In this document: positions 4,597 through 21,440 of the stretch, in pieces | Numbering within the stretch: position 1 is the stretch's first letter | Layout: the number at the start of each line of letters is the position of its first letter | Position numbers and translations under genes: made by a program | Source of the DNA: Gemmatimonadota bacterium | GTDB lineage: Bacteria; Gemmatimonadota; Gemmatimonadetes; Gemmatimonadales; GWC2-71-9 | Direction: 5' to 3' | Length of the DNA: 64,000 bases | Assembly (NCBI GenBank): GCA_039586365.1 | Contig: JBDHKN010000005.1 | Coordinates: 32,001-96,000 of the forward strand | Notes under the pieces: model-generated | Seen by the model: only the letters and a program-made list of their open reading frames with translations | Told to the model about the DNA's origin: nothing | Database searches by the model: none

Positions 4597-4785
4597 TTAT
4601 CCAGCCTGCAGCATCTCTCGCATTCGGCGCGCCAACGACTCTATCTCTCTGAGCGACGTCGCAGTTTCATCATCGTACTGATCTGCACCGAGCAGCAGCA
4701 GCTGTGTCTCAGCCAGGATGGCTGAGAGAGGATTGGAGAGATCGTGCCGCAGTTTACGGATTCTCTCGTCCTGTTCCAGCGTCAT
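4597..4785 (-). CDS. Stand-alone HisKA (dimerisation/phosphoacceptor) domain protein, 62 aa
   Basis: H-box LRHDLSNPLSAI followed by a second helix; no HATPase domain. Confidence 0.75.
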   Translation of the reverse strand: MTLEQDERIRKLRHDLSNPLSAILAETQLLLLGADQYDDETATSLREIESLARRMREMLQAG

Positions 4786-5069
4786 TCAGCGATTGAGCGA
4801 TAGAGATCGCGGAAGTGGTGGTCCCGGAGATCACGCACGGACTGCCACAGGTCGTTTTCGTTCGTCGCACAGAAGATCTCAGCCGTGGCCGGCGCAGCAC
4901 CGATCTCCTCGGAACCGAATATCAATTTCGCACGCCAGGTGCCGTCTTCAGCCCGCCTGACCTGAAGTCTGAGTGGGATTTCCTCCCCGCCGTAGAGCAT
5001 CGGGGGAATCTCGTGCACAACAGGTTCGGACCGGTCTGAGGCCCCGTACCGCAGCGGATTAGCCTGCAT
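4782..5069 (-). CDS. Hypothetical protein, 95 aa
   Basis: AGGA RBS upstream, ATGA overlap with the HisKA gene, globular composition. Confidence 0.7.
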   Translation of the reverse strand: MQANPLRYGASDRSEPVVHEIPPMLYGGEEIPLRLQVRRAEDGTWRAKLIFGSEEIGAAPATAEIFCATNENDLWQSVRDLRDHHFRDLYRSIAE

Positions 5070-5203
5070 TTATTATCCTGTTGGTTTGCGCAAATATAAA
5101 AGTATCCTTGACTTACGCAATAGTGAGCAGGCGCTCGCGTAGGGACGGATCCGTGGCAACAACAGCACATGTAGGATCCATATGGAGCGGTGTTGAGGCA
5201 ACG

Positions 5204-6319
5204 CTACAAGGCAAACGGCACCGGCATGAAGGTCACCACAAACAGCAACACGGTCGCCCAACCGAGCGGGAATCGGCTCCTGGGAAGCGCTCGATGCCTG
5301 TCCAGCACCGTGGGATGGCCGATGTGGCCGCTACCCAACAGCAGCGTGAAGCCAGCCCAAAGCCACCAGAAAGGAAAGTCGAATCCCAGGACGATCAGCG
5401 AGAACCAGACCAGGATTCCTATGAACTTCTGTCGTTCCCGCACCAACGCGTACAGTACGTGGCCGCCATCCAACTGTCCCAAGGGAAGTAGGTTCAACAT
5501 TGTCACCAGCACGCCAAACCACCCCGCCTGAGCCAGCGGATGAAGCACAACTGTCCCTTCACCCACGAGCCACAGGCGGGCCCACTGGGTGATGAGAGAG
5601 TCGCCCAGGTAAATGCGATACTGGCCAAACACCACGACCAACTGTGTGGGGCCCACTTCATTGATTACGTCCGACCGCTGCAGACCTATGAGGAGCACAA
5701 AGAGCGCGACCACGAATCCCAGCCACGGCCCCGCTGCCCCGACATCCATCAACTGCCGCCGATCAACGACCGGACTCCGCAAGCGGATGAATGCACCAAA
5801 GGTCCCGATGACATTGATGAACGGAGGAGCGGGAAGGAAGAATGGTGGTGACGCGTTGATCGAGTATCGCTTGGCAACCACGTAATGCCCCATCTCGTGC
5901 GCCAATAATATGCCCATCAGCGCGACGGCGAAATCCAGCCCGACATCGACTCTCAGCTGCAGGACCCAGTGGATGAACTGGCTGCCGAAGTTGGGAACCT
6001 CTCGCAGCGAGACGGGTCCGGCTACATCTGCTCCCGAGAGCAGGGCCCCCCCCATCCACACCGTAAGGAACGAGACGGAGAACAACAGGCCGTGGAGCCA
6101 CCAGCGCTCCTTCGCGGTAGGCCCGATGCTCCTGATCAGTACCATTCTCCCAGCGCCATCGCCGTGCGCCCAATAGTGGGTTCCCGGCCACTCTTTGAGA
6201 GCGGCCGCAAACTCGGGGGACGGACCGCGGTGTTCGGGCTGCACGACCGCATCGATGATCTCGCGGTCACGGGCGGTGACAGTGCGCCAGACAGTGAAGA
6301 ATCTGACTAGCGGAACCAT
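5204..6319 (-). CDS. Site-2 protease (peptidase M50)
   Basis: HEMGH zinc motif, NLLPLGQLDGGH motif, multiple TM segments. Confidence 0.92.
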   Translation of the reverse strand: MVPLVRFFTVWRTVTARDREIIDAVVQPEHRGPSPEFAAALKEWPGTHYWAHGDGAGRMVLIRSIGPTAKERWWLHGLLFSVSFLTVWMGGALLSGADVAGPVSLREVPNFGSQFIHWVLQLRVDVGLDFAVALMGILLAHEMGHYVVAKRYSINASPPFFLPAPPFINVIGTFGAFIRLRSPVVDRRQLMDVGAAGPWLGFVVALFVLLIGLQRSDVINEVGPTQLVVVFGQYRIYLGDSLITQWARLWLVGEGTVVLHPLAQAGWFGVLVTMLNLLPLGQLDGGHVLYALVRERQKFIGILVWFSLIVLGFDFPFWWLWAGFTLLLGSGHIGHPTVLDRHRALPRSRFPLGWATVLLFVVTFMPVPFAL

Positions 6320-6486
6320 GCGGCCTCTTGACGCCCCCGGAAAACCTGGATATCATAACGTGCTTTCACATCTAGATACCCCCGAACTGCAATCCGACTC
6401 TCATTGTGCACGCGGCTGCGCCGCGCACCACTAGTGACTGCGCTTGACAGCAGTAGGTAACCCTCCTAAACACGGAGTCCCTTCAA

Positions 6487-7737
6487 GTGGACATCGCAGA
6501 ACTGAAAAAGAAATCGATCCCGGAGCTGCACGCGATGGCCGAGGAGTTGAACATCACCAACTACTCTGGCCTCCGCAAGCAGGACTTGATCTTTAGAATC
6601 GAACAATCGCTGTTGGACTCCGACACGGTATTGCGTGGTGAAGGTGTTCTGGAAATCCTTCCCGAGGGGTACGGATTTCTCCGCAGCCAGGATTGGAACT
6701 ATTTGTACGGCCCCGACGACATATACGTCAGTCCCAGTCAGATCAAGCGGTTCGACCTGCGTACTGGAGACACGATTCTCGGGCAGGTCAGACCTCCTAA
6801 AGATGGGGAGCGATACCTCGCTCTCCTCAAAGTCGAGACGGTAAATTTCGAGGAGCCAGAGAAAGCCAAGCACCGCATTGGCTTCGACAATCTGCGACCG
6901 AGGTATCCCGAGCGGCGCATTCCGCTAGAGCGCGTGGACGGGGATCTGTCCATGCGGGTCGTGGACATTTTGGCCCCCATAGGCTGCGGGCAGCGCGGTT
7001 TGATCGTGTCACCACCCAAGGCCGGAAAGACAATCCTCCTCCAGAAGCTGGCCAACTCGATCACCGAGAACAAACCTGACGCGACACTGATCGTCCTCTT
7101 GATCGACGAACGACCGGAAGAGGTCACTGACATGGAAGAGCACGTGGACGCCGAAGTGATCTCGTCCACGTTCGATGAGCCGGCAGATCGCCACGTGCAA
7201 GTGGCTGACATGGTGCTCGAGAAGGCAAAACGACTGGTCGAGCACGGGCGCGATGTAATCATCCTGCTCGACTCAATCACCCGCCTGGCCCGCGCTCACA
7301 ACGTGGTTATCCCGCACTCCGGCAAGATCCTCTCTGGCGGCGTGGACGCCAACGCCCTACAGAAACCAAAGCGGTTCTTCGGCGCAGCCCGGAACATTGA
7401 TGGTGGGGGATCACTGACCATCATCGCCACCGCTCTCATCGAGACCGGCAGTCGCATGGACGAAGTGATTTTCGAGGAGTTCAAAGGAACCGGCAACATG
7501 GAACTCGTCTTGAATCGGAGCATTGCCGATAGACGTGTATACCCCGCCATCGACGTGCAGCGGAGTTCCACTCGGAAAGAAGAGCTCTTGCTCGATCCAG
7601 ATGAGCTGAACAAGACGTATCTGCTGCGCAACTTCCTGGCGGACATGCCCACTGTCGAGGCAATCGAGTTCTTGCTCGAGCGGATGAAGCGGGCCAAGAC
7701 CAACCAGGATTTCTTCGCCACAATGCAGCAAGGGTGA
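6487..7737 (+). CDS. rho: Transcription termination factor Rho
   Basis: [15 protein letters not shown], Walker [27 protein letters not shown]. Confidence 0.98.
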
Positions 7738-8225
7738 CGGGGCAGCGGAACGGCAGCACTGCGGGACGGCAACACGGATCGCCGCACAACCCCGGGGAGT
7801 TGCCGCTGCGGGGCCGCGTACTGGCAATCGACGTTGGCGATAAACGCATCGGTCTTGCACTCTCCGATCCCACACAAACGCTGGCTCAACCTCTCGCTAC
7901 ACTCACCCGCCGCGTCGGAAAACGTTTCCCGATGGGCAAGCTCAAGCAATTCATCGACACTCATCGCCCGGTCGCGCTGCTGCTCGGTCTGCCGCTTGCT
8001 CCCGACGGCTCGGAGGACGAACGAGCAGTCGCGGTGCGAGAGGTAGGCGCTCTCCTGATGGCGAAAGCCGAGCTGCCAGTTGCGTATTGGGACGAGCGTA
8101 TGAGTACCGCGCGTGTACACTCAGCGGTGAGAGAGTGGGGTGGTACACTTGGCAGGAAGGGCGACGTTGACCAACTGGCCGCTACTGTATTTCTCCAGAC
8201 TTACCTCGACAGCCGCCGATGCTGA
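7734..8225 (+). CDS. ruvX: Holliday junction resolvase-like protein RuvX/YqgF
   Basis: [31 protein letters not shown] motifs. Exact start uncertain. Confidence 0.92.
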
Positions 8226-11711: not shown

Positions 11712-11885
11712 CTAGCGACGCTTCGCCCGAGCCTTCTTCTTAGTGGCCTTCTTCTTAGTGGCCTTCTTCTTGGTGGCCTTCTTCTTGGTGGCCTTCTTCT
11801 TGGTGGCCTTCTTCTTCACAGCCTTCTTCTTGGTGGCCTTCTTCTTCACAGCCTTCTTCTTGGCGGCCTTCCTCTTTGCTGGCAT
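11712..11885 (-). CDS. Histone H1-like basic repeat protein, 57 aa
   Basis: MPAKRKAA(KKKA[V/T])8KKKARAKRR with a strong AGGAGG RBS 5 nt before the ATG; encoded by 15-bp tandem repeats. Confidence 0.85.
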   Translation of the reverse strand: MPAKRKAAKKKAVKKKATKKKAVKKKATKKKATKKKATKKKATKKKATKKKARAKRR

Positions 11886-11985
11886 GCCTACCTCCTGTTG
11901 GTGGGTCAAGCCCCGCCATTCTCGACGGGACGGTTGCCTGAGCGACATACGATGCCACTCATTGTCTCCTGCTCTCTACTCTCTG

Positions 11986-13392
11986 CTACAACACTTCGCT
12001 GCTCTCACGCTCACGACCTAGGACATCACCGAGTTCGCTCCGCTGTATGGCGTCGGACCCGACCGTGAAGTGAAAGTCACGTACGACCACAGGTGGCACT
12101 ACTACAGGCACACCCAGGCCACCCGACTCTGAGGCAACTACTCGCACTGCCGATCCTATCGACTCCACGTTGTTCAGAATCGAGATAATGCTCTCCTTGA
12201 ACCACATATTGCTCACAGGCAGGACTATTCGCCCGTCCTCGATGAGAAACATCCCATCGCGCGTGAGCCCCGTGTACGTCAGTCGACGGTGGTCCACTGG
12301 CCGAACGTACCAGAACCTCGTTACCAGCAGCCCTCGGTCGACGGTAGATACCAGGTCGTCAACCGTTCCCTCACCACCGGTGAGTTTGATTCCGCCCCCA
12401 TGCAGCAGGGGCTCTCGACCCTGCCGACTTGCCCAGTAACGGTCATACTCGAGGTTCTGCAGGACTCCGTTCTCTATCCACGTCGTGTGACGCAGCGGTG
12501 TGCCGTCAGCGGCGAACGGACGGGCCAGCAGATCGGGGTCAGTTGGATCTGACAGCACCGAAAGGCGCTCGTCGATTACCTGCTCGCCGACCCTGTTGCC
12601 ATCCCCATTCCGCGAGAAGAAGGAGCGACCTTCATCTGCAGCTCTGGCAACCAAGGCGGCTTGTAGCAGTGTTATCAGGTTGCCGACAGCGGTCGGTTCC
12701 AAAACGACCGTGTAGGCTCCGACATCGACCGCCACGGCGTTTACACTCTGCCGTGCTCTGTTGATGGCCCGCTCCGCGAGTTCTCCCGGTGGGAGCATTT
12801 GCTCCCAATCGTTGTGGGTAGTGCCAGCCCAGGCTGACCCAGTTCCGTCCGTGGTTTGCACCGTCGTTGTATGGGATGCGAGGGTCGACTGGTGGTACGC
12901 GAACAATCCTGCGGTGTTCAGCAACGCCTCTGACCTAGCCCGAGTTTGGATGAACCCACCGGCGATCAAATCCGTTGAAGACGCCCGCTCAGTGACTGCC
13001 CGCACCGCGGTCACAAAGTCTTCATCCCCCAACTCATTTGTGCTGTCGAAAAACGCGGCACTGGGCAAATACTCTTGAGGGCCGAGGGGAGGCATGGTCT
13101 CCGGATCATCGGGGGCAAGCTGCGCCAACTCTTCAGAGCGAGAGACTGCGTCTTCAACCGCGGTGTCGCGCAGATCGTTCCACGTCACGGCTGCCCGCTT
13201 CTGACCGAATGTGGATGCTACGGTCACCTCTGCATCCGAGGCATCTCCCGATACCGTCATCTCATTGCGCGCATATCTAGCGAACCGAGTCAGCCCAGAA
13301 ACTAGCGTCACTTGCGCTGCATCTGCTGAGCTGTGCGACATGACCCTCTCGCACACCTCACGCGCATCGGCTTCGGTAAGAAACTCCGCCAT
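11986..13392 (-). CDS. TldE/PmbA-family protein
   Basis: YTVVLEPTAV, GRSFFS, RGLLVTRFWYVR, TGLTRDG; downstream partner of TldD. Confidence 0.88.
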   Translation of the reverse strand: MAEFLTEADAREVCERVMSHSSADAAQVTLVSGLTRFARYARNEMTVSGDASDAEVTVASTFGQKRAAVTWNDLRDTAVEDAVSRSEELAQLAPDDPETMPPLGPQEYLPSAAFFDSTNELGDEDFVTAVRAVTERASSTDLIAGGFIQTRARSEALLNTAGLFAYHQSTLASHTTTVQTTDGTGSAWAGTTHNDWEQMLPPGELAERAINRARQSVNAVAVDVGAYTVVLEPTAVGNLITLLQAALVARAADEGRSFFSRNGDGNRVGEQVIDERLSVLSDPTDPDLLARPFAADGTPLRHTTWIENGVLQNLEYDRYWASRQGREPLLHGGGIKLTGGEGTVDDLVSTVDRGLLVTRFWYVRPVDHRRLTYTGLTRDGMFLIEDGRIVLPVSNMWFKESIISILNNVESIGSAVRVVASESGGLGVPVVVPPVVVRDFHFTVGSDAIQRSELGDVLGRERESSEVL

Positions 13393-13404
13393 CGGCGACT
13401 CTAG

Positions 13405-15003
13405 CTAGACCGCCGTGTTGACGACTCTGAAGTCATGAAACCGCGCTGCCGGACACCCATGGCTCGCCGCATTTAGCTGCGTGGGCTGACCTTTGGCATC
13501 ACCGATCGTCCCGCAGAGCTGATAGCTACGAGCACCACCCAGCATATCCAGAGAATTCCAGAACTCCAATGTATTCCCCTGATAAGCTGTGTCCTTGAGC
13601 ATGCGGGTGATTCTCCCGCCGCGCACTTCATAACACACATGAGCGCCGAACTGGAAGTTGTATCGCTGCTGATCAATGCTATAGGGGCCACGCCCTTTGA
13701 TAAGAATCCCGCGATCTGTGGCGGCAACCAGGTCATCTAGCACAAGGTCGTTCTCTGCCGGCAACAACGAGACGTTCGGCATGCGCTGCAACTGGGCGAC
13801 ATCCCAAGACTCCCCGAACGAACAGCCGTGTGAACGACTGACGCCAGTCAACTCGGCGATCAGCGTCGCTTGCTCGCGAGTCGTCTGGTAGTCCACGAAC
13901 GTGCCATCCTGGATAATGGGCCAGCTGTCGGCGGTGACACCTTCGTCATCCCACCCCACTGTCGCGAGGCCACCCCTCTGAGTCCTATCGCCGATCACGT
14001 TCATGAACTCAGGTCCGTACCGAACTTCACCGATTGCAGTCTCCGGCGGTGCCAGGAATGACGTACCTGCGTAGTTGGCTTCATAGCCAAGCGCCCTGTC
14101 GAGTTCAGTAGGACGGCCGATAGTCTCATGAATGGTGTGGAACAGATTGGTCGGATCAATAATCAAATCGTAGCGACCCGGCTCCACTGCAGTGGCAGAC
14201 AGCATCTCGACAGCCAGCTCCGCCCATTCCGTGGCCCTGCCCGGCAGATCCGCAGCCTCGACATGCTCATATCCCAGTCCCATCGGGGCAATGTCAGTCG
14301 ATGTGTGGGACGCAACGTCACTGGAGTCGGTGGCCACGGCCGTTACTGTCATCGACGGGTAAGACCGGTAAAGTGTCTGCTCAATAATACTGCCGTCTGT
14401 GGAGGCAAACGTGGTTTCCACTTTCACGAAATACATGCTCGACGTCACAAACCGGGCAGCTGACACTGCTGCCGCTACCCTGTTTGCCTCGAGCAGCAGT
14501 TCGGTCTTGTCGCTCATCCTCACAGTGAAAGGGTCTCGCCGGACCGGCGTCATCCATCTGCCGTCCGGATAAGCGGTCACTCTGGCAAGCTGCACGGGTC
14601 GGCGAATTGCTTCGCTGTTTACCTCCGCTTGCTCCACCGCCCGCAACGCGATTCTACTACACTCCTCACGTGTCACAGTCCGACTCGCCGCAAACCCCCA
14701 GGCACCGTTGACCAGTGCCCTCACTCCCACTCCAAAGGTCTCACGGTCCTGCAATTCACTGACACGCTCTTCCTGCGCGGCAACGAACTGGTCGCGTTTG
14801 TTGACGATTCGCACATCTGCATATGTGGCTCGCTTCGAACGAGCGGCGTTCAGTGCAACCAGGCATAGATCTTTGAATGCCGCACCCTGCATGGTTCCCT
14901 GCGGAGTATACCCGAACTTCGGCAGCCAATCACTACCAACTGCGCCCAGTGCAACAGCGGAAAGCGTTGATTGCTTGATGAACTCGCGTCGTGTTCGTGA
15001 CAT
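13405..15003 (-). CDS. TldD-family protein with a twin-arginine signal peptide
   Basis: MSRTRREFIK signal, GVRALVNGAWGFA, ELDRALGYEANYAG, QRMPNVSL, SHGCP. Metal motif reads HETIGR. Confidence 0.9.
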   Translation of the reverse strand: MSRTRREFIKQSTLSAVALGAVGSDWLPKFGYTPQGTMQGAAFKDLCLVALNAARSKRATYADVRIVNKRDQFVAAQEERVSELQDRETFGVGVRALVNGAWGFAASRTVTREECSRIALRAVEQAEVNSEAIRRPVQLARVTAYPDGRWMTPVRRDPFTVRMSDKTELLLEANRVAAAVSAARFVTSSMYFVKVETTFASTDGSIIEQTLYRSYPSMTVTAVATDSSDVASHTSTDIAPMGLGYEHVEAADLPGRATEWAELAVEMLSATAVEPGRYDLIIDPTNLFHTIHETIGRPTELDRALGYEANYAGTSFLAPPETAIGEVRYGPEFMNVIGDRTQRGGLATVGWDDEGVTADSWPIIQDGTFVDYQTTREQATLIAELTGVSRSHGCSFGESWDVAQLQRMPNVSLLPAENDLVLDDLVAATDRGILIKGRGPYSIDQQRYNFQFGAHVCYEVRGGRITRMLKDTAYQGNTLEFWNSLDMLGGARSYQLCGTIGDAKGQPTQLNAASHGCPAARFHDFRVVNTAV

Positions 15004-15410
15004 CAATCTCCTTCCAAGTATCGCATGCGACGGTGCGAATATTATAGATACCTTTAAAACGCGCAATACTCATTCATCACCAACAACACGCTGATCAATG
15101 CAGTTTCTGCCACAGTGGATTAGGGGGGCGTGCAAAACTGGGCTTCACTCGTGCGTCCCGAGCACACTAACGACTTCTGCTTGAGTGGGTCACGCCGGCG
15201 CATGTAAATGTTCATTGACATCAATCGATCGATGCTTCGAGTACTGTACCACTCTGCGAGCAAGAGTGAGACAGCAGGTGCACACTACTGTATGGACCGC
15301 GCGTGACCCTGCAAATTGTAAGAGTAGGTTGCCGGTGGTTACCATCATAGCGCGCCCTGAGCTCACACTCACACAGCGCACGCTTGAGGTTGAAGAACTA
15401 CACAGTGGTA

Positions 15411-17156
15411 TCAGTCTTCTTCCAGCGTCGACAGATCTCCTACTTCTTCCCCCCACTCGAGTGCCCGTAGATAACGCCTGAGGATCTTCCCCGACCTGGT
15501 TTTGGGAAGCTTCTCCGCAAACGCAATCTCGTGGGGCATGGCCAACGGTGACAGCCGCTTGCGGACGAAATTCATGATCTGGAGCTCGAGTTCTTCCGAA
15601 GGTTCATAACCTGGATTCAAAGCTACGAACGCCTTGACTACCTCCATGTTGATCTCATCGGGCTTACCAATGGCTGCGGCCTCTGCCACGGCTTCGTGTT
15701 CGATAAGTGCCGACTCGATCTCAAACGGACCAACCAGGTGTCCTCCTGTGTTGATCACATCGTCGTCACGACCAACGAACCAGAAGTACCCTTCGTGGTC
15801 CATACTGGCACGATCGCCAGACACATACCACAGATCTGGATTGCTGCGAAGTTCATCGGGCTGGTCGCCGGAGTTGGCGCCAATGAACTTGCTGCGGTAG
15901 ACGTCCGGCATCCCCCAGTATGTGCGGAACATAGCTGGCCAACCGGGCCGGAATGCGATCAGTCCGACGTTTCCCGGCTGTCTGATCGGCTCGTGGCTCT
16001 TCAGGTCTAGTACTGTGGCGGAGATCCCTGGAAACGGTTTGCCCATCGATCCGGGTTTGACCTGCATGCCCGGATAGTTGGCGATCATGATTGCGCCCGT
16101 TTCCGTTTGCCAGAACGTGTCATGGAAGGGAAGCCCGAGAGCCTTCTCACTCCAGATGACCGCTTCAGCGTTCAAGGGCTCACCAACAGATACGAGGTGA
16201 CGCAATGACGACAGATCGTACTGCCGTTCTGGATTCCCAGCCTCTCGCATCAATGAACGGATTGCGGTCGGGGCCGAGTACCATACGGTCACTTTGTTGT
16301 CTTGTATGAACTGGTACCAGCGGGCCGCCATGAAACCCGAGTCCAACACGCACTGAGTAACGCCGAGTGACCAGGGACCGATAATCCCATAGCTGGTGCC
16401 GGTCACCCAACCCGGGTCCGCGGTGCACCAGTACACATCCTGGTCAGTAAGATCGAGGACCCAATTGGCTGTCAAAGCCTGACCCCAGATAGAGCTGTGC
16501 ACGTGTAGTGCACCCTTGGGCTGTCCTGTGGTACCGGATGTGTAGTGCAGCACAGAAGGACTCTCGGGATCGGCTGGAAATACGGAAAAGTCACCCGCGC
16601 GCGGTGCCGCTTCGACGCCAAAGAACACTTCTCCGTCCTTGATCTTGGACTCATCTCCATCCACGACTATGACGTATTCCAGGCTGGGTAGCCTGTCTCT
16701 GATCTTGCGGACCTTCTTCACGTGCTTCTGTGTTGTCAGGATGGCCTTTGTCTCAGCATTCGCTAATCGAATCTCGAGTGATTCATCTCCAAATGCTGAG
16801 AAGAGCGGCTGTGCAATGGCACCGAGCTTGAGGATTCCGAGGAACGCGAAGTAGAGAGTGGGAATCTTGTCCATGAATATGCAGACCCTATCACCCTGCT
16901 GGACATCTAATCCCGATAGAAATTGTGCAATGCCATTGGACAATACGCGTAGATCGTCGAAGTTGTAGGTGTGCTTCTTCCCTCCGAATCCTTCCCAGAT
17001 CAAGGCGGGCTTGTCACCTTTACCTTGTGCACATATCCGATCGGAACACAGCGCCCCGATATTCAGAATCTCACCGTCGGTCCATCCCAACAGTTCCTTA
17101 GCGATATCCCAATTGAAATCGCTGACTCTTGTATCATAGGACACGATATTGCTCAT
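15411..17156 (-). CDS. acsA: Acetate-activating ligase (AcsA-like acetate--CoA or acetate--ACP ligase)
   Basis: HYTSGTTGQPKG, ADPGWVTG, SVGEP, DTFWQTETG, PKTRSGK; acetate-pocket residues retained. Confidence 0.88.
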   Translation of the reverse strand: MSNIVSYDTRVSDFNWDIAKELLGWTDGEILNIGALCSDRICAQGKGDKPALIWEGFGGKKHTYNFDDLRVLSNGIAQFLSGLDVQQGDRVCIFMDKIPTLYFAFLGILKLGAIAQPLFSAFGDESLEIRLANAETKAILTTQKHVKKVRKIRDRLPSLEYVIVVDGDESKIKDGEVFFGVEAAPRAGDFSVFPADPESPSVLHYTSGTTGQPKGALHVHSSIWGQALTANWVLDLTDQDVYWCTADPGWVTGTSYGIIGPWSLGVTQCVLDSGFMAARWYQFIQDNKVTVWYSAPTAIRSLMREAGNPERQYDLSSLRHLVSVGEPLNAEAVIWSEKALGLPFHDTFWQTETGAIMIANYPGMQVKPGSMGKPFPGISATVLDLKSHEPIRQPGNVGLIAFRPGWPAMFRTYWGMPDVYRSKFIGANSGDQPDELRSNPDLWYVSGDRASMDHEGYFWFVGRDDDVINTGGHLVGPFEIESALIEHEAVAEAAAIGKPDEINMEVVKAFVALNPGYEPSEELELQIMNFVRKRLSPLAMPHEIAFAEKLPKTRSGKILRRYLRALEWGEEVGDLSTLEED

Positions 17157-17218
17157 TCATTGACTCCAAACTGTGCTTTGAATCTGTTCCCCGGTGCGGG
17201 GTGGCGAACTGACCAACC

Positions 17219-19468
17219 TCACGTGCGGATCTCTGACAGCACGGGGACTCCGGACTTCTCAGTCCCCACCACCATCCTTGGCGATCCGCCACGCATTACT
17301 AGTGATTCTTTGAATACCGGAGCCCTCAGGGTCGTATCGCTGGTCGGAAACCGTGCGGTCCAGCTCTGACTGGGATCGAACAGTCCGATGAGATCGTTGA
17401 GTACGGCAGTCGCCACCGGTAACGCTCCCCCGACCGTGCCAATGAGTACGTTTTCACTGCCATCCGGATAGTGCAGTACCACGACTTGGTTCACATCCTT
17501 GACCATCCCTAAATGACTCTGCGCCCGAACAGCCATGGGTCGCACCGTAGCCAACACTTCGTCCGGTGCGCGTATTGCCATCGCCACCAGCTTGACTCTG
17601 AACTCGAGCTCCGGTGCACGTCTAACGAGTTCGGTATCGACTTGTTCAAGGCCGACAGTCTCAATCTGCTGGCCAACATGTCGCCGACCGGTTGCTTGGG
17701 TAAGCAACAGCATCAGTTTCTGAGCTGTGTCCCAGCCAGATACATCCAATTCCGAATCCGGCTCAGTCAGTTCACGTTCAACGGCTCTGGCAAGCGCCGC
17801 GTCGAGTGTAGCTCCTTGCTCCATGTGTTCCAACATTGTGTTACAGGCACTCGACAACACGGCTTGAAGGTCTCGTACAGTGCGCTGAGACAGCGGCCTC
17901 TCCAGCGAATGGATGAGCGGCCACCCAGCCGCAATCGAATCGTGGTATGCGATGCGAATCCCATGCTGAAATGCCAACCGATCCAACGCTTCGCCGTTGG
18001 CGCGCAGCAGCGCTTTGTTCGGGGTCACTACATGGTGGCGACGGATCAAGGCCTTCTGGACCAGTGGCAACGAGCCAAGCCCACGCGTCAGATCCAACAC
18101 AACGTCAATGTCTTGCCGCGAGACGACCGCATCCGGGTCGTAGCTGACTGGGACGGCGTCAAAGACGGGGTCCAGCTCCTTCTCAGTGTCCGTCTCCGCC
18201 ACCCCAGCAACTTCGATGAGCAGACCATTCCTGGTTGCCAATTGATGGCGTCGTTCCTCAATCAGCCGCAGGAACGACGCGGCAATCTGTCCAGCACCAA
18301 GGATAGCGAGCCGTACGGACCGCAGTTCACGCGCTTCGCGCGTGAACAGAGTCTTGGGCTCAGCGCCGGCTGGGCCACGCAAGATGTCTGCAATCTGGTC
18401 CGTGTCCAACAGGAAGGCGTCGTGACCGTTGGGCGACCGAATCTCTGCATACGCAACATCGCGACCCAGGTGCTCCAGGATGTCCGCCCCTAGCTGTACC
18501 TCAGCTGGTGGATAGAGATTATCCGAGCTGATACCGATCACGATTGTGGAACAGGTAACCCGGTTCAGTGCGCTCACCAGATCTCCCCGCCCCGCACTCA
18601 CATCGTGCAGATCCATCGCGCGGCTGAACAGCAGGTAAGTGAAAGGATCGAAACGCTGGGTAATTCGCCTGCCGTGATGTCTCAGCCAGGATTCGACATT
18701 GTACATTCCCCGCTCTCTCAGCACCGAGCCCGGCGCCTTGAACCAATCCCGACCGAACTTCTCCTCGAGGCCGATGGGAGAGCGGTAACTCATCATCCCG
18801 ACACCCCGCGCCACCATCTGCCCAACTTTGGCCACCACCTCATCTTCGGTGATATCGAGCTCGATTCCACGACGCTGGAGCCAGTTCAGGCCGATCTGAT
18901 AGGGTGATGTGCGCAGCGGCGCCGCCACAACGACAGCTTGGTCGACCATGTCTGGAGCCTCGATTGCCCACTCCCAGGCGATCATCGCTCCCATACTGGG
19001 GCCGATTACCATACTCAGACGTGGTATACCCAGTGCCTCCAAGAACAACCTCTGAACCCGCATCATGTCGAGGGGAGTGAGCAGCGGGAAGCGGTCCAAG
19101 TACGGTTTGCCGTCGCCGGACGGAAACCGCGGTCCGGTGGTCCCGTAGCAGCCGCCCAGGAGATTGGGGCAGAGGACGAAATGTGTGTCGGTGTCTATTG
19201 CCCGACCCGGGCCGATGAGAGGTTCCCACCAACCCAAGGGTTCGTCGGCAAACTCACCCGTAGCGTGGCAGTCGCTAGTCATGGGGTGAATGATGAGCAC
19301 AGCGTTGTCTCTTGCCGCGTTCAGCTCACCCCACGCTTCGTAGCTAATCTGGATTGCCGATAGCTCTCCGCCGTATGCCGCCCGGAACGGTTCAGGCAGG
19401 TCGAGGTGCACAACCTTGCCAAGCTCGACTGTTGGTGAGCTCCACCAGAGATCGCGATGGTCCTTCAT
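17219..19468 (-). CDS. Fusion of a homoserine O-acetyltransferase-like (MetX) domain and a homoserine dehydrogenase-like domain
   Basis: N-half: YEAWGELNAARDN, GGCYGTTGP, GPSMG nucleophile, SSDNLYPP, GHDAFL. C-half: LAILGAGQI, VVTPNKA, EPDSELDVSGWDTAQK, VKLVA. Start placed at ATG 19468. Confidence 0.85.
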   Translation of the reverse strand: MKDHRDLWWSSPTVELGKVVHLDLPEPFRAAYGGELSAIQISYEAWGELNAARDNAVLIIHPMTSDCHATGEFADEPLGWWEPLIGPGRAIDTDTHFVLCPNLLGGCYGTTGPRFPSGDGKPYLDRFPLLTPLDMMRVQRLFLEALGIPRLSMVIGPSMGAMIAWEWAIEAPDMVDQAVVVAAPLRTSPYQIGLNWLQRRGIELDITEDEVVAKVGQMVARGVGMMSYRSPIGLEEKFGRDWFKAPGSVLRERGMYNVESWLRHHGRRITQRFDPFTYLLFSRAMDLHDVSAGRGDLVSALNRVTCSTIVIGISSDNLYPPAEVQLGADILEHLGRDVAYAEIRSPNGHDAFLLDTDQIADILRGPAGAEPKTLFTREARELRSVRLAILGAGQIAASFLRLIEERRHQLATRNGLLIEVAGVAETDTEKELDPVFDAVPVSYDPDAVVSRQDIDVVLDLTRGLGSLPLVQKALIRRHHVVTPNKALLRANGEALDRLAFQHGIRIAYHDSIAAGWPLIHSLERPLSQRTVRDLQAVLSSACNTMLEHMEQGATLDAALARAVERELTEPDSELDVSGWDTAQKLMLLLTQATGRRHVGQQIETVGLEQVDTELVRRAPELEFRVKLVAMAIRAPDEVLATVRPMAVRAQSHLGMVKDVNQVVVLHYPDGSENVLIGTVGGALPVATAVLNDLIGLFDPSQSWTARFPTSDTTLRAPVFKESLVMRGGSPRMVVGTEKSGVPVLSEIRT

Positions 19469-19490
19469 CGAATATCGGGTTGACCCAACC

Positions 19491-20738
19491 TCACATTCCG
19501 AACTTTGCTTCGATTCCCTTCTTGTCCAACCCGAGGATCCCGTAGTTGTCGCCAACCTTGTTGAAGGCCTCGAGTGCTCGCTGCAACATCGAGACGTCGT
19601 GGTCAGCCGACAGCTGAGTTCTGATACGGGCCTGCCCCTGGGGCACCACCGGGAAGAAGAACCCTATGACGTATACACCCTCGTCATAGAGGTCTCGGGC
19701 GAAGTCCTGGCTCAGCTTGGCGTTGAACAGCATCACTGGGACGATGGGGCTCTCACCTTGCTTAATCACGAAGCCAGCATCAGTCAGTTCCTTGCGCCAG
19801 AACTTCGTGTTCTCCTCCAATCTGTCGCGACGCTCTGTGCTGCGGTTGACAATCTCGAGGACCTTGAGAGCTCCCGCAACCAGTGGAGGGGCCATGGTAT
19901 TGCTGAACAGGTACGGCCGCGCTCGTTGGCGGCAAAGTTCCACCAATTCTCTGCGCCCCGAGACACACCCACCAGACGCTCCACCCAGAGCCTTGCCGAG
20001 CGTCGTAGTGATCACGTCGATCCTACCCATGACACCGAAGTGCTCCGGGGTGCCACGGCCGGTCTTTCCGATGAAGCCGCTCGCATGACTGTCATCCAAG
20101 AACACCAAGGCGTCATGTTTCTCTGCTAGATCGCAGATCTGATCCAGCGGCGCCAAGTCGCCATCCATACTGAACACTCCGTCGGTCACGATCATCCTCA
20201 CGCGCTTGTCCTGATGTTCCTCCAACTTCTGCTCGAGGTGCTGCATGTTGGAGTGCTTATAGGTATCAGTCAGCGCCTTGCACAGTCGAATCCCATCCAC
20301 AATGCTGGCATGTACCAGACGGTCGGATATGATCACATCTTCCGGGCCCAGTATTGCCTCGAATACACCGGCGTTTGCATCCATACAGCTAGGAAACAGA
20401 ATCGTGTCTTCGGTACCGAGGAACGCCGAAAGCCTCTCCTCAAGTTCCCGATGAATGTCCTGCGTGCCACAAATGAACCTGACACTCGAAAGGCCGTAGC
20501 CGCGTTCCTCTAGCGCCCTGTGTGCTGCCTCTATGACTTCTGTATGAGAGGATAGGCCCAGGTAGTTGTTCGCGCATAGGTTCACGACCGACCTCAGTTC
20601 TGCGCCGGATGGAAATTCCACTCGAATGTTGGCGGACTGAGGCGAGTGAATGAAGCGCTCTTCCTTGTACAGCCCCTGGTCGCGAATGGAGTTCAGCTGA
20701 GCTTCATACGATTCCCTGAGTGAACCTCGATAGGCCAT
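19491..20738 (-). CDS. kbl: Glycine C-acetyltransferase (2-amino-3-ketobutyrate ligase), PLP alpha-oxoamine synthase
   Basis: CANNYLGLS, SSVRFICGTQD, DGVFSMDG, DDSHA, TLGKALGG, RPYLFSN, ARIRTQ. Confidence 0.93.
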   Translation of the reverse strand: MAYRGSLRESYEAQLNSIRDQGLYKEERFIHSPQSANIRVEFPSGAELRSVVNLCANNYLGLSSHTEVIEAAHRALEERGYGLSSVRFICGTQDIHRELEERLSAFLGTEDTILFPSCMDANAGVFEAILGPEDVIISDRLVHASIVDGIRLCKALTDTYKHSNMQHLEQKLEEHQDKRVRMIVTDGVFSMDGDLAPLDQICDLAEKHDALVFLDDSHASGFIGKTGRGTPEHFGVMGRIDVITTTLGKALGGASGGCVSGRRELVELCRQRARPYLFSNTMAPPLVAGALKVLEIVNRSTERRDRLEENTKFWRKELTDAGFVIKQGESPIVPVMLFNAKLSQDFARDLYDEGVYVIGFFFPVVPQGQARIRTQLSADHDVSMLQRALEAFNKVGDNYGILGLDKKGIEAKFGM

Positions 20739-20739
20739 C

Positions 20740-20988
20740 TCACTCCCCTCCCTGGTGTTTCTTCACGACACGGACGATGTTCTTCACGGTGTCAAACGCT
20801 TCAGCAGATGCCTCTTCGTCGGAGATCGAGATATTGTACTTCTTCTCGAGAAATCGCTTCAAGCTAACCATGCTGAAGCTGTCGACTATACCGCTCGATA
20901 TCAGGGGAGTGTTCTCGTCGAGTTCTGTGTCCTCGTCGTCGTCTTCGAGGTATTCGTTGCGAATGTATTCCAAGACCACTGTTTCCAT
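20740..20988 (-). CDS. Acyl carrier protein
   Basis: Small and acidic, GIVDSFSMV phosphopantetheinylation motif, GAGGAGG RBS before ATG 20988. Confidence 0.9.
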   Translation of the reverse strand: METVVLEYIRNEYLEDDDEDTELDENTPLISSGIVDSFSMVSLKRFLEKKYNISISDEEASAEAFDTVKNIVRVVKKHQGGE

Positions 20989-21059
20989 CGGTTCCTCCTC
21001 ATCACATTGAATCAATCAGCGACCGAGGGTCATGCACTACAGACAGCGAAGGGGACATT

Positions 21060-21440
21060 TCACGCTCTCTCCAACACCACTACGGCCCCTGCGTACTCGC
21101 GCTCGTGGCTGAGGCACAGATGGATTCTGCCAACTCCAAGGGCATTTGCCACCCTCTCGGCCTCTCCTCGGAGCCGTAGCCGTGGTGTTCCCCTGCCATC
21201 CCACGCCACCTTGATATCGTGCCACGACAGCCTGCCAAACAGACCCGTTCCGAGAGACTTGGACAACGCTTCCTTGGCCGCAAAGACCGCGGCGTATGAC
21301 GAGAATGGATGTGGTTGCGTTTGGCAGTTGGCAATCTCGTCAGCTGACAAGAACCCCTCCAAGAATCCCTCACCATGGCGAGTGACTCCGTCTCTCATCC
21401 GTGCGATCTCAGCCAAGTCAATCCCAATGCCTACAATCAT
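21060..21440 (-). CDS. acpS: Holo-ACP synthase (AcpS-type PPTase)
   Basis: IVGIGID, FAAKEALSKSLGTG, LSHE motifs. Confidence 0.93.
   Translation of the reverse strand: MIVGIGIDLAEIARMRDGVTRHGEGFLEGFLSADEIANCQTQPHPFSSYAAVFAAKEALSKSLGTGLFGRLSWHDIKVAWDGRGTPRLRLRGEAERVANALGVGRIHLCLSHEREYAGAVVVLERA

Follow-up and report, generated by a model that had tools for sequence, protein, structure and literature searches.

The DNA stretch analysed here, 64,000 nucleotides of a Gemmatimonadota genome (the window), carries on its minus strand a five-gene operon, acpS-ACP-kbl-metX::hom-acs, at 15,411-21,440. We find that four of these genes form a real, conserved and apparently undescribed module with the usual order acpS-acs-ACP-kbl. 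Judged by sequence comparison, this module is the design of adenylating ligase, acyl carrier protein (ACP) and alpha-oxoamine synthase, seemingly applied to acetate and glycine and accompanied here by a linked family of MetX::Hom fusions. Within it, the ACP probably serves as the acetyl carrier of both the oxoamine synthase (Kbl-A) and the ligase (Acs-A), in whichever direction acetyl groups flow. No description of the module or of the fusion family was found in the open-licence PMC or bioRxiv literature, subscription papers lying outside the scope of that search.

Five co-oriented, tightly packed genes had been predicted here from the letters alone, and both their arrangement and their families are borne out. 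From acpS to acs the gaps measure 71, 1, 22 and 62 bp, and family scans return ACPS, PP-binding, TIGR01822, MetX with Homoserine_dh, and PRK04319. acpS (21,060-21,440) encodes an AcpS-type phosphopantetheinyl transferase of 126 residues (PF01648; TIGR00516 at 105.6 bits, cut-off 59.8), and the next gene (20,740-20,988) a dedicated acidic carrier protein of 82 residues with Ser37 in GIVDSFSMVSLK (PF00550 at 23.2 bits, cut-off 20.8). kbl (19,491-20,738) encodes Kbl-A, an alpha-oxoamine synthase that depends on pyridoxal phosphate (PLP) and is of an ACP-linked subtype (415 residues; glycine C-acetyltransferase TIGR01822 at 593 bits, cut-off 493), followed by metX::hom (17,219-19,468), a fusion of MetX with homoserine dehydrogenase (MH; 749 residues; PRK00175 at 342 bits, cut-off 331, with a fused Homoserine_dh domain), and acs (15,411-17,156), encoding Acs-A, an AcsA-type acetate-adenylating ligase (581 residues; acetate-CoA ligase PRK04319 at 732 bits, cut-off 729). 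The identical five-gene order is present on an independent metagenome contig at 90-95% identity; this, together with recurrence in many phyla, argues that the grouping is not due to chance. A recent foreign origin was rejected on the GC content at third codon positions, 0.63-0.69, which is the same as in the flanking genes. Gemmatimonadota account for the nearest relatives of the operon that bear a name. A scan for promoters and terminators returned matches at chance level only. The remainder of the window consists of housekeeping genes. As predicted, there is no fatty-acid synthase gene among the 52 window open reading frames scanned with Pfam, and no tdh match on the contig (C92). The description of the cluster as self-contained fails genome-wide: in the source genome (G000, 86% complete; C-numbers are its contigs, and other G- and L-numbers the further genomes and loci compared) a short-chain dehydrogenase/reductase (SDR)-type Tdh, ThrB, ThrC, a second Acs and a second AcpS are encoded elsewhere.

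The conservation of the module was assessed by a GTDB scan with the 82-residue ACP, and the counts given here refer to the best 80 of 220 confirmed loci, from 34 of the 64 parts of the collection. Kbl-family genes are seen at 78 of these 80 loci, Acs genes at 66, AcpS genes at 43 and the MetX::Hom fusion or its MetX half at five; no other neighbour rises above 17/80. Kbl-A lies directly downstream of the ACP in 74 of them; the two loci lacking a Kbl-family gene end just after the ACP, and in four (L004, L005, L007, L008) the sole BioF/Kbl-type gene is on the opposite strand. The loci belong to Acidobacteriota, Gemmatimonadota, WOR-3, Eisenbacteria, Zixibacteria, Calditrichota, Planctomycetota and other phyla. 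The linkage of ACP, kbl, acs and acpS is thus kept across many phyla, and the possibility, raised with the original prediction, that it is peculiar to this genome falls away. We note that one genome holds two copies of the ACP (L007 and L030), one beside acs and an ordinary Kbl and the other in an acpS-ACP-kblA arrangement. G382 was rejected as a case of a module without Acs-A, the gene lying in frameshifted pieces in that assembly, and is not counted.

The module resembles the AasR-AcpR-SPT start module of sphingolipid synthesis in Caulobacter, E. coli B and other Rhodobacteria, where an adenylating ligase, a dedicated ACP and an alpha-oxoamine synthase likewise travel together. According to PMC9386255, the ligase of that system ignores CoA and the synthase prefers acyl-ACP; Supplementary Table 4 of that paper lists homologues of AcpR/AasR from different contexts, which could affect how novel the module is. 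That system joins long-chain acyl groups to serine, whereas the module described here combines an acetate pocket with a Kbl active site. A lipid or sphingolipid pathway was rejected on account of this pocket, this active site and a separate SPT-like cluster at C105, which contains the other oxoamine synthase of G000; against SPT models, Kbl-A scores 224-326 bits for cut-offs of 500-670. In the C105 cluster (4,685-7,997), labelled from sequence starts and BLAST, the SPT-like synthase is followed by a GNAT-like gene and an SDR/epimerase gene, resembling a bacterial ceramide synthesis cluster.

The carrier protein has its DSF serine at residue 37, and counts 20 acidic against nine basic residues. 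Helix II is invariant in 78/78 aligned sequences, with a mean column identity of 70% overall. The protein falls under the cut-off of all 12 NCBIfam carrier families that it matched, including TIGR00517 for the fatty-acid AcpP (24.6 bits, cut-off 70.45), and an identity as AcpP is ruled out, since AcpP sits at C48 between fabG and fabF. A plasmid search with the ACP gave one weak match. The second AcpS of G000, at C92:99,446, shows 36% identity. Two further stand-alone carrier proteins were noticed at C6:34,685-36,471 and C118:54,669-54,941, one preceding an adenylation enzyme and an acyl-CoA dehydrogenase, the other among radical-SAM and FkbH-like genes.

Use of acetyl-ACP by the ligase and by Kbl, as originally proposed, gains comparative evidence from gene linkage and from changes at likely CoA-contact positions in both enzymes. 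Kbl-A retains the PLP- and glycine-binding residues seen in E. coli Kbl (PDB 1FC4), with R28, N57, H143, S190, D215, H218, K249, F278-S279-N280 and R371 invariant in 60/60 sequences. When 95 ACP-adjacent Kbls were compared with 42 non-adjacent ones (three of 140 were omitted: one orphan Kbl-A and two with too little flank), residue 140 was R in 94 of the ACP-linked proteins and K in one, residue 142 was V/I in 95/95 as opposed to N in 42/42, and the loop at 156-159 was free of basic residues in 88/95 as opposed to 5/42. D158 (81/95), C269 (94/95), an insert at 42-46 and a C-terminal tail that carries K406 further mark the subtype, from which the D-x-L-N-H-A-S motif and basic loop common to CoA-using Kbls are absent. 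Relative to E. coli Kbl and the C. necator enzyme (7BXP), with which it shares 54-55% identity, the PLP and glycine residues and often nearby Tdh genes, Kbl-A reads DRLVH for DALNH, KALTDTY for KAKRYRY and SCMD for SCFD; it also differs from ordinary Kbl by the insert of five residues, the tail of 13 residues and an obligate ACP neighbour. In E. coli BioF the first of these stretches reads D-R-L-S-H, and PMC12704756 describes this enzyme as favouring pimeloyl-ACP, and B. subtilis BioF as accepting pimeloyl-CoA alone.

Two genomes of one genus (G176 and G149; loci L280 and L281) have a Kbl-A with Arg at 157, and neither ACP nor Acs-A was found in them. Belonging to one genus, they count as a single event, and their Kbl-A is a natural candidate for reversion to CoA use. 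Kbl-A occurs in 10/301 sampled genomes of the phylum. Structure prediction of a Kbl-A dimer with the ACP gives a complex score of 0.50 (three controls, the highest at 0.00), in a range rated more often wrong than right unless the pair is likely beforehand; contact agreement between runs is at least 94% and partner pLDDT at least 81. The mark used is reached by 116/157 solved and 2/215 mismatched pairs, and at scores up to 0.60 by 18/157 solved pairs and both of the mismatches. The predicted complex lends weak support to binding between Kbl-A and the ACP.

Acs-A keeps the small-acyl pocket (W250, V324, W349) and the A10 lysine K557 in 59/59 sequences, and the predicted motifs GWVT, SVGEP and FWQTE are all in place. 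It forms a clade of its own (support 99/99). With B. subtilis-type AcsA (PRK04319; PDB 9G79) it shares the acetate pocket, P-loop and A10 lysine, but differs in two respects. First, the A8 G-x-R motif is lost, reading G-H-L in 59/59 where B. subtilis AcsA has G-E-R. Second, a basic segment at 144-153 occupies the place of the CoA-nucleotide loop, which PMC13404658 describes for Salmonella Acs; K/R144 is found in 59, K/R148 in 58, R150 in 59 and K/R151 in 56 of 59. This segment would be a plausible dock for the acidic ACP.

A similar departure is seen on plasmids, where three of the four AcsA regions opened are acsA-pdhA-pdhB-pdhC-ACP cassettes whose AcsA lacks the A8 Arg, while the fourth has no ACP and keeps it. 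As in the module, a PRK04319-type AcsA that lacks the A8 Arg adjoins a free-standing ACP and an enzyme handling acetyl groups; the cassettes differ in having another ACP type, an AcsA from a separate clade (sister relation unsettled) and pyruvate dehydrogenase in place of Kbl. The plasmids (L289, L290, L291) come from the cultured species Desulfotalea psychrophila, Tropicibacter oceani and Methylocystis rosea. The cassette is annotated, and no paper characterising it was found.

We propose that the system may operate in five steps: (I) AcpS, recognised by its family, would phosphopantetheinylate the motif serine Ser37 of the neighbouring ACP; (II) Acs-A, given its acetate pocket, would turn acetate and ATP into acetyl-AMP and pass the acetyl group to the ACP as its putative acceptor; (III) Kbl-A, with its active-site residues intact, would join glycine and acetyl-ACP, the presumed donor, into 2-amino-3-oxobutanoate; (IV) Tdh, of SDR-type at C77 in G000 and of Zn-type within the operon itself in G059, would reduce this product to L-threonine, if flow takes that direction; and (V) the MetX domain would make O-acetylhomoserine from acetyl-ACP or acetyl-CoA, using salvaged homoserine in this lineage. 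For step V, acetyl-ACP as the donor is conceivable and somewhat doubtful. The overall Tdh/Kbl reaction lies near equilibrium. A tiny acetyl pool charged by ATP could be kept almost fully acetylated at any acetyl-CoA/CoA ratio and would then push Tdh and Kbl towards threonine. The complete biosynthetic reading, in which a private acetyl-ACP pool carries acetate and glycine to threonine and MetX possibly draws on the same pool, is one we hold tentatively, at a little short of probable. As for the threonine route from acetate and glycine that had been proposed at the outset, it is plausible, as one possible direction of flow, and fits the absence of aspartate kinase and Asd from G000.

The MH family comprises at least 120 full-length proteins with 55-72% identity. 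A structure model (pLDDT 80.9, low in the lid) agrees with both folds and offers nothing further. In the MetX half, S158 is present in 119/120 and D316, H349, R221, Y228, D350 and L318 each in 120/120, in keeping with the Arg/Tyr/Asp homoserine-binding site and the acetyl-type Leu two residues past the catalytic Asp, as described in PMC6937278 and PMC13683966. In the Hom half, the Rossmann GxGxx, the TxNK lysine, K485, E569, D575, D580 and K584 match 3MTJ, 4PG4 and 6DZS and are kept in 116-120 of 120. We take the substrate and catalytic roles of the E/D/D/K residues to be those of the yeast enzyme. MH remains below the cut-off of TIGR01392 (327 bits, cut-off 500), with HPMTSD in place of HALTGD. 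Compared with MetX-G1 and homoserine dehydrogenase (PDB 6PUX, 2B61, 3MTJ), it has the same folds, triad, acetyl-type Leu, homoserine-binding residues and dehydrogenase catalytic residues, but HALTG is replaced by HP(L/M)(T/A), GGSMG by G(P/A)SMG, FEASV by YH(N/D)(S/A)I and NGT by SS(T/A); it is moreover fused, linked to the ACP module and, in four carriers, found without LysC and Asd.

At 5/80 loci, MH was rejected as a core part of the module. Its linkage to the module nevertheless recurs in six orders: that of the window, also seen in G059, G112, G312 and G325; acs-ACP-kbl-MH (G390); MH-acpS-acs-ACP-kbl (L138); divergent (L147); convergent two genes away (G536); and a MetX half alone, convergent (L054). 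These orders fall on different FastTree branches, with L138 inside a well-supported group of stand-alone copies. In samples not picked by the ACP, MH occurs in 2/300 (own phylum, without G000), 5/120 and 1/300 genomes; the module accompanies it in six of these eight, and Acs-A in a seventh. Since related genomes are not independent, we do not rely on Fisher tests of MH against Kbl-A (p 0.0008 and 0.011). From its residues and repeated linkage, MH would be a homoserine enzyme tied to the module, perhaps via acetyl-ACP; the original suggestion that it takes its acetyl groups from this carrier is possible and is strengthened by this linkage. Operation of MH backwards from methionine was rejected on thermodynamic grounds.

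The genomes bear on where homoserine and threonine come from. In G000 no Zn-type Tdh exceeds its cut-off, and the SDR-type Tdh lies at C77:32,629-33,585, its best 18 PDB matches being Tdh-type (top E 2e-132); an absence of tdh from the genome is thus rejected. Of the other genes whose presence in the full genome had been in question, thrB (at C91), thrC and a second acs are all found, and a second kbl is not. G000 also encodes MetH, MetB/MGL-like enzymes, threonine aldolase, GlyA, glycine cleavage, AckA and Pta. Neither aspartate kinase nor Asd was found in G000, G059 (96% complete), G112 (95%) or G312 (one contig), all with the same operon, which leaves the Hom domain unexplained there; both were found in G317 and G325. 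The LysW-type cluster at C30:11,358-16,117 (lysW, lysX, lysY, an amidotransferase-like gene, lysZ, lysJ) is in keeping with the lack of aspartate kinase and Asd. Across the family, aspartate kinase is missing in 48/125 genomes, and it is present in all 41 that match an ordinary metX or hom, fusion carriers being the sole exceptions; these tallies, like the phylum count of Kbl-A above, include G057, G097, G157 and G182, which are flagged as unpublished and without which the family figures become 47/123 and 40/40. thrB is kept in 31/47 of the family genomes lacking aspartate kinase, most of them without a homoserine dehydrogenase match, so that homoserine salvage looks family-wide, and retention of thrB was rejected as a sign of a new homoserine route. 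In these relatives thrB may reflect homoserine salvage or another role of ThrB.

Two further loci of G000 deserve mention. At C77:32,629-37,352 (L211), alanine-dehydrogenase-like, acetyl-CoA hydrolase/CoA-transferase and SDR-type threonine dehydrogenase genes form one run, and relatives of its CoA-transferase and Tdh adjoin the ACP module in other phyla. At C87:78,320-80,692 (L212), two microcompartment-shell-like genes accompany an acetylating aldehyde dehydrogenase 44% identical to a module-adjacent one.

The original prediction had the fusion reduce or acetylate the Kbl product. More broadly, the module might make another product: either aminoacetone, by decarboxylation of the aminoketone, towards aminopropanol or compounds of pyrazine type, or a threonine isomer formed by reduction of 2-amino-3-oxobutanoate by the Hom-like domain, with acetylation by the MetX-like domain. 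MH directly follows kbl in two orders, the family shares pocket changes at P62, P157, H509, W516, S540 and W579, an FAD amine-oxidase-like oxidoreductase gene comes after kbl in 7/80 loci, and both the missing LysC and Asd of four MH genomes and the 41/41 pattern of the family would agree with it. We nevertheless regard it as distinctly improbable: the Hom residues K485, E569, D575, D580 and K584 match those of solved homoserine dehydrogenases, a Tdh is present beside the module (inside the G059 operon) or apart from it (as in G000), MH is absent from 75/80 loci, and homoserine salvage appears to be family-wide. Because homoserine-type catalytic residues are kept, MH probably does not reduce the Kbl product, and that part of the original prediction finds no support.

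The preserved homoserine chemistry also suits a plainer explanation, in which ordinary CoA enzymes happen to share their regulation, the ACP acts as a partner for regulation or storage, and MetX::Hom serves housekeeping methionine synthesis and became inserted into the operon. All four enzymes pass ordinary family cut-offs; no Hom or MetX other than MH was found in G000, and MH has an invariant acetyl-type Leu318 and invariant homoserine-binding residues R221, Y228 and D350; MetH is present in 12/12 MH genomes (over the cut-off in 11); and relatives carry ordinary metX-hom fusions, from which MH is a clade apart. Such an account would leave the dedicated AcpS, the invariant helix II of the ACP and the parallel changes in Kbl-A and Acs-A unexplained, G000 already has a second, ordinary Acs, and MH stands alone without met or thr neighbours or beside the module in six orders; we consider it improbable.

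The direction of flow is where the strongest competition arises. Synthesis of threonine is favoured because a private pool that is charged by ATP can drive a reaction lying near equilibrium, because an ordinary Kbl accompanies Kbl-A in 6/80 loci, as expected of isoenzymes for opposite directions, because a Hom-domain match at 1e-20 exists in only 10/50 module genomes (50 of 79 sent; one diverged query, P0002), because the linked MetX consumes acetyl groups, and because aspartate kinase and Asd were not found in the four operon genomes named above. The main rival is the opposite flow: Tdh would oxidise threonine, Kbl-A would cleave the product to glycine and acetyl-ACP, Acs-A would run backwards (with AMP and pyrophosphate, giving acetate and ATP), and MH would be a side drain. 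Threonine dehydrogenases do occur at the ACP loci (SDR-type in 10/80; Zn-type with nine matches, two of them weak, hence about 7/80), among variable neighbours that include an acetylating aldehyde dehydrogenase (16/80) and a CoA-transferase::GNAT protein (11/80). An ATP-forming Acs, dependent on a displaced CoA loop, is reported for Syntrophus (Acs1 of S. aciditrophicus) in PMC4992975 and PMC13404658. The rival remains somewhat unlikely in our judgement: AckA and Pta in G000 already give ATP from acetyl-CoA, the loci with both Kbl types already own a degradative enzyme, and the operon genomes are without the aspartate route to threonine.

A number of observations weigh against synthesis from a private acetyl-ACP pool, and the first three of them speak for the opposite flow. 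Kbl-A is the sole Kbl found in G000, G059, G112, G176 and G149 (118/125 family genomes have a Kbl match, or 116/123 without the four genomes set apart above), as would be expected if it had simply replaced the degradative enzyme. G003 (99% complete), G049 (97%) and G336 have ACP and Kbl-A, but no Acs-A was found in them. In the pyruvate dehydrogenase cassette, the acetyl group must come irreversibly from pyruvate, so that AcsA may serve to unload it. Beyond direction, every linkage count takes the ACP as its starting point, with kin among the genomes counted. The Salmonella R191/R194 loop is missing from B. subtilis AcsA as well, a true CoA ligase, and on its own therefore does not discriminate; Acs-A keeps R532, at the position of Salmonella R584, in 59/59. 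Judging by the structure of 5-aminolevulinate synthase, Kbl residues 139-159 would hold the adenosine of CoA; a literature search yielded no confirmation. G000 has ThrB, ThrC and threonine aldolase. Among 13 further genomes with the module or MH, 12 do possess aspartate kinase, and losing the aspartate route is thus no general trait. As for MH, G400 and G409 carry it with no Kbl-A or ACP match (G400 has Acs-A), about 16 metagenome copies stand alone on their contigs, and MetY is over the cut-off in 0/12 MH genomes.

Two neighbouring features of the window complete the picture, both on the minus strand. A TldD/PmbA-like pair (11,986-15,066) lies directly downstream of acs and is retained only in close relatives. 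A 78-residue open reading frame of histone-like KKATK repeats (11,712-11,948) also has counterparts at related loci.

In central amino-acid metabolism, CoA is taken to be the carrier on which acetyl groups are transferred. In its widest form, our reading would posit a CoA-free acetyl economy, in which ATP-charged ACP is the acetyl donor of several re-tooled enzymes, makes threonine de novo without the aspartate route and feeds MH, with homoserine not derived from aspartate kinase and Asd; this extension we consider unlikely on present evidence. If acetyl-ACP is indeed used as proposed, the design of AasR-AcpR-SPT would not be limited to lipids, and D-R-L-x-H versus D-x-L-N-H would become a sequence mark for ACP versus CoA use in oxoamine synthases. 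Pathway engineering would also gain an acetyl carrier that is natural and orthogonal, and strains with the pyruvate dehydrogenase cassette would let the idea be tested in culture. For the organisms themselves, it would mean that a route between acetate, glycine and threonine is driven by ATP independently of the acetyl-CoA/CoA ratio, and that genes labelled acsA, kbl, acp and metX are mis-modelled in many uncultured anaerobe and soil lineages.

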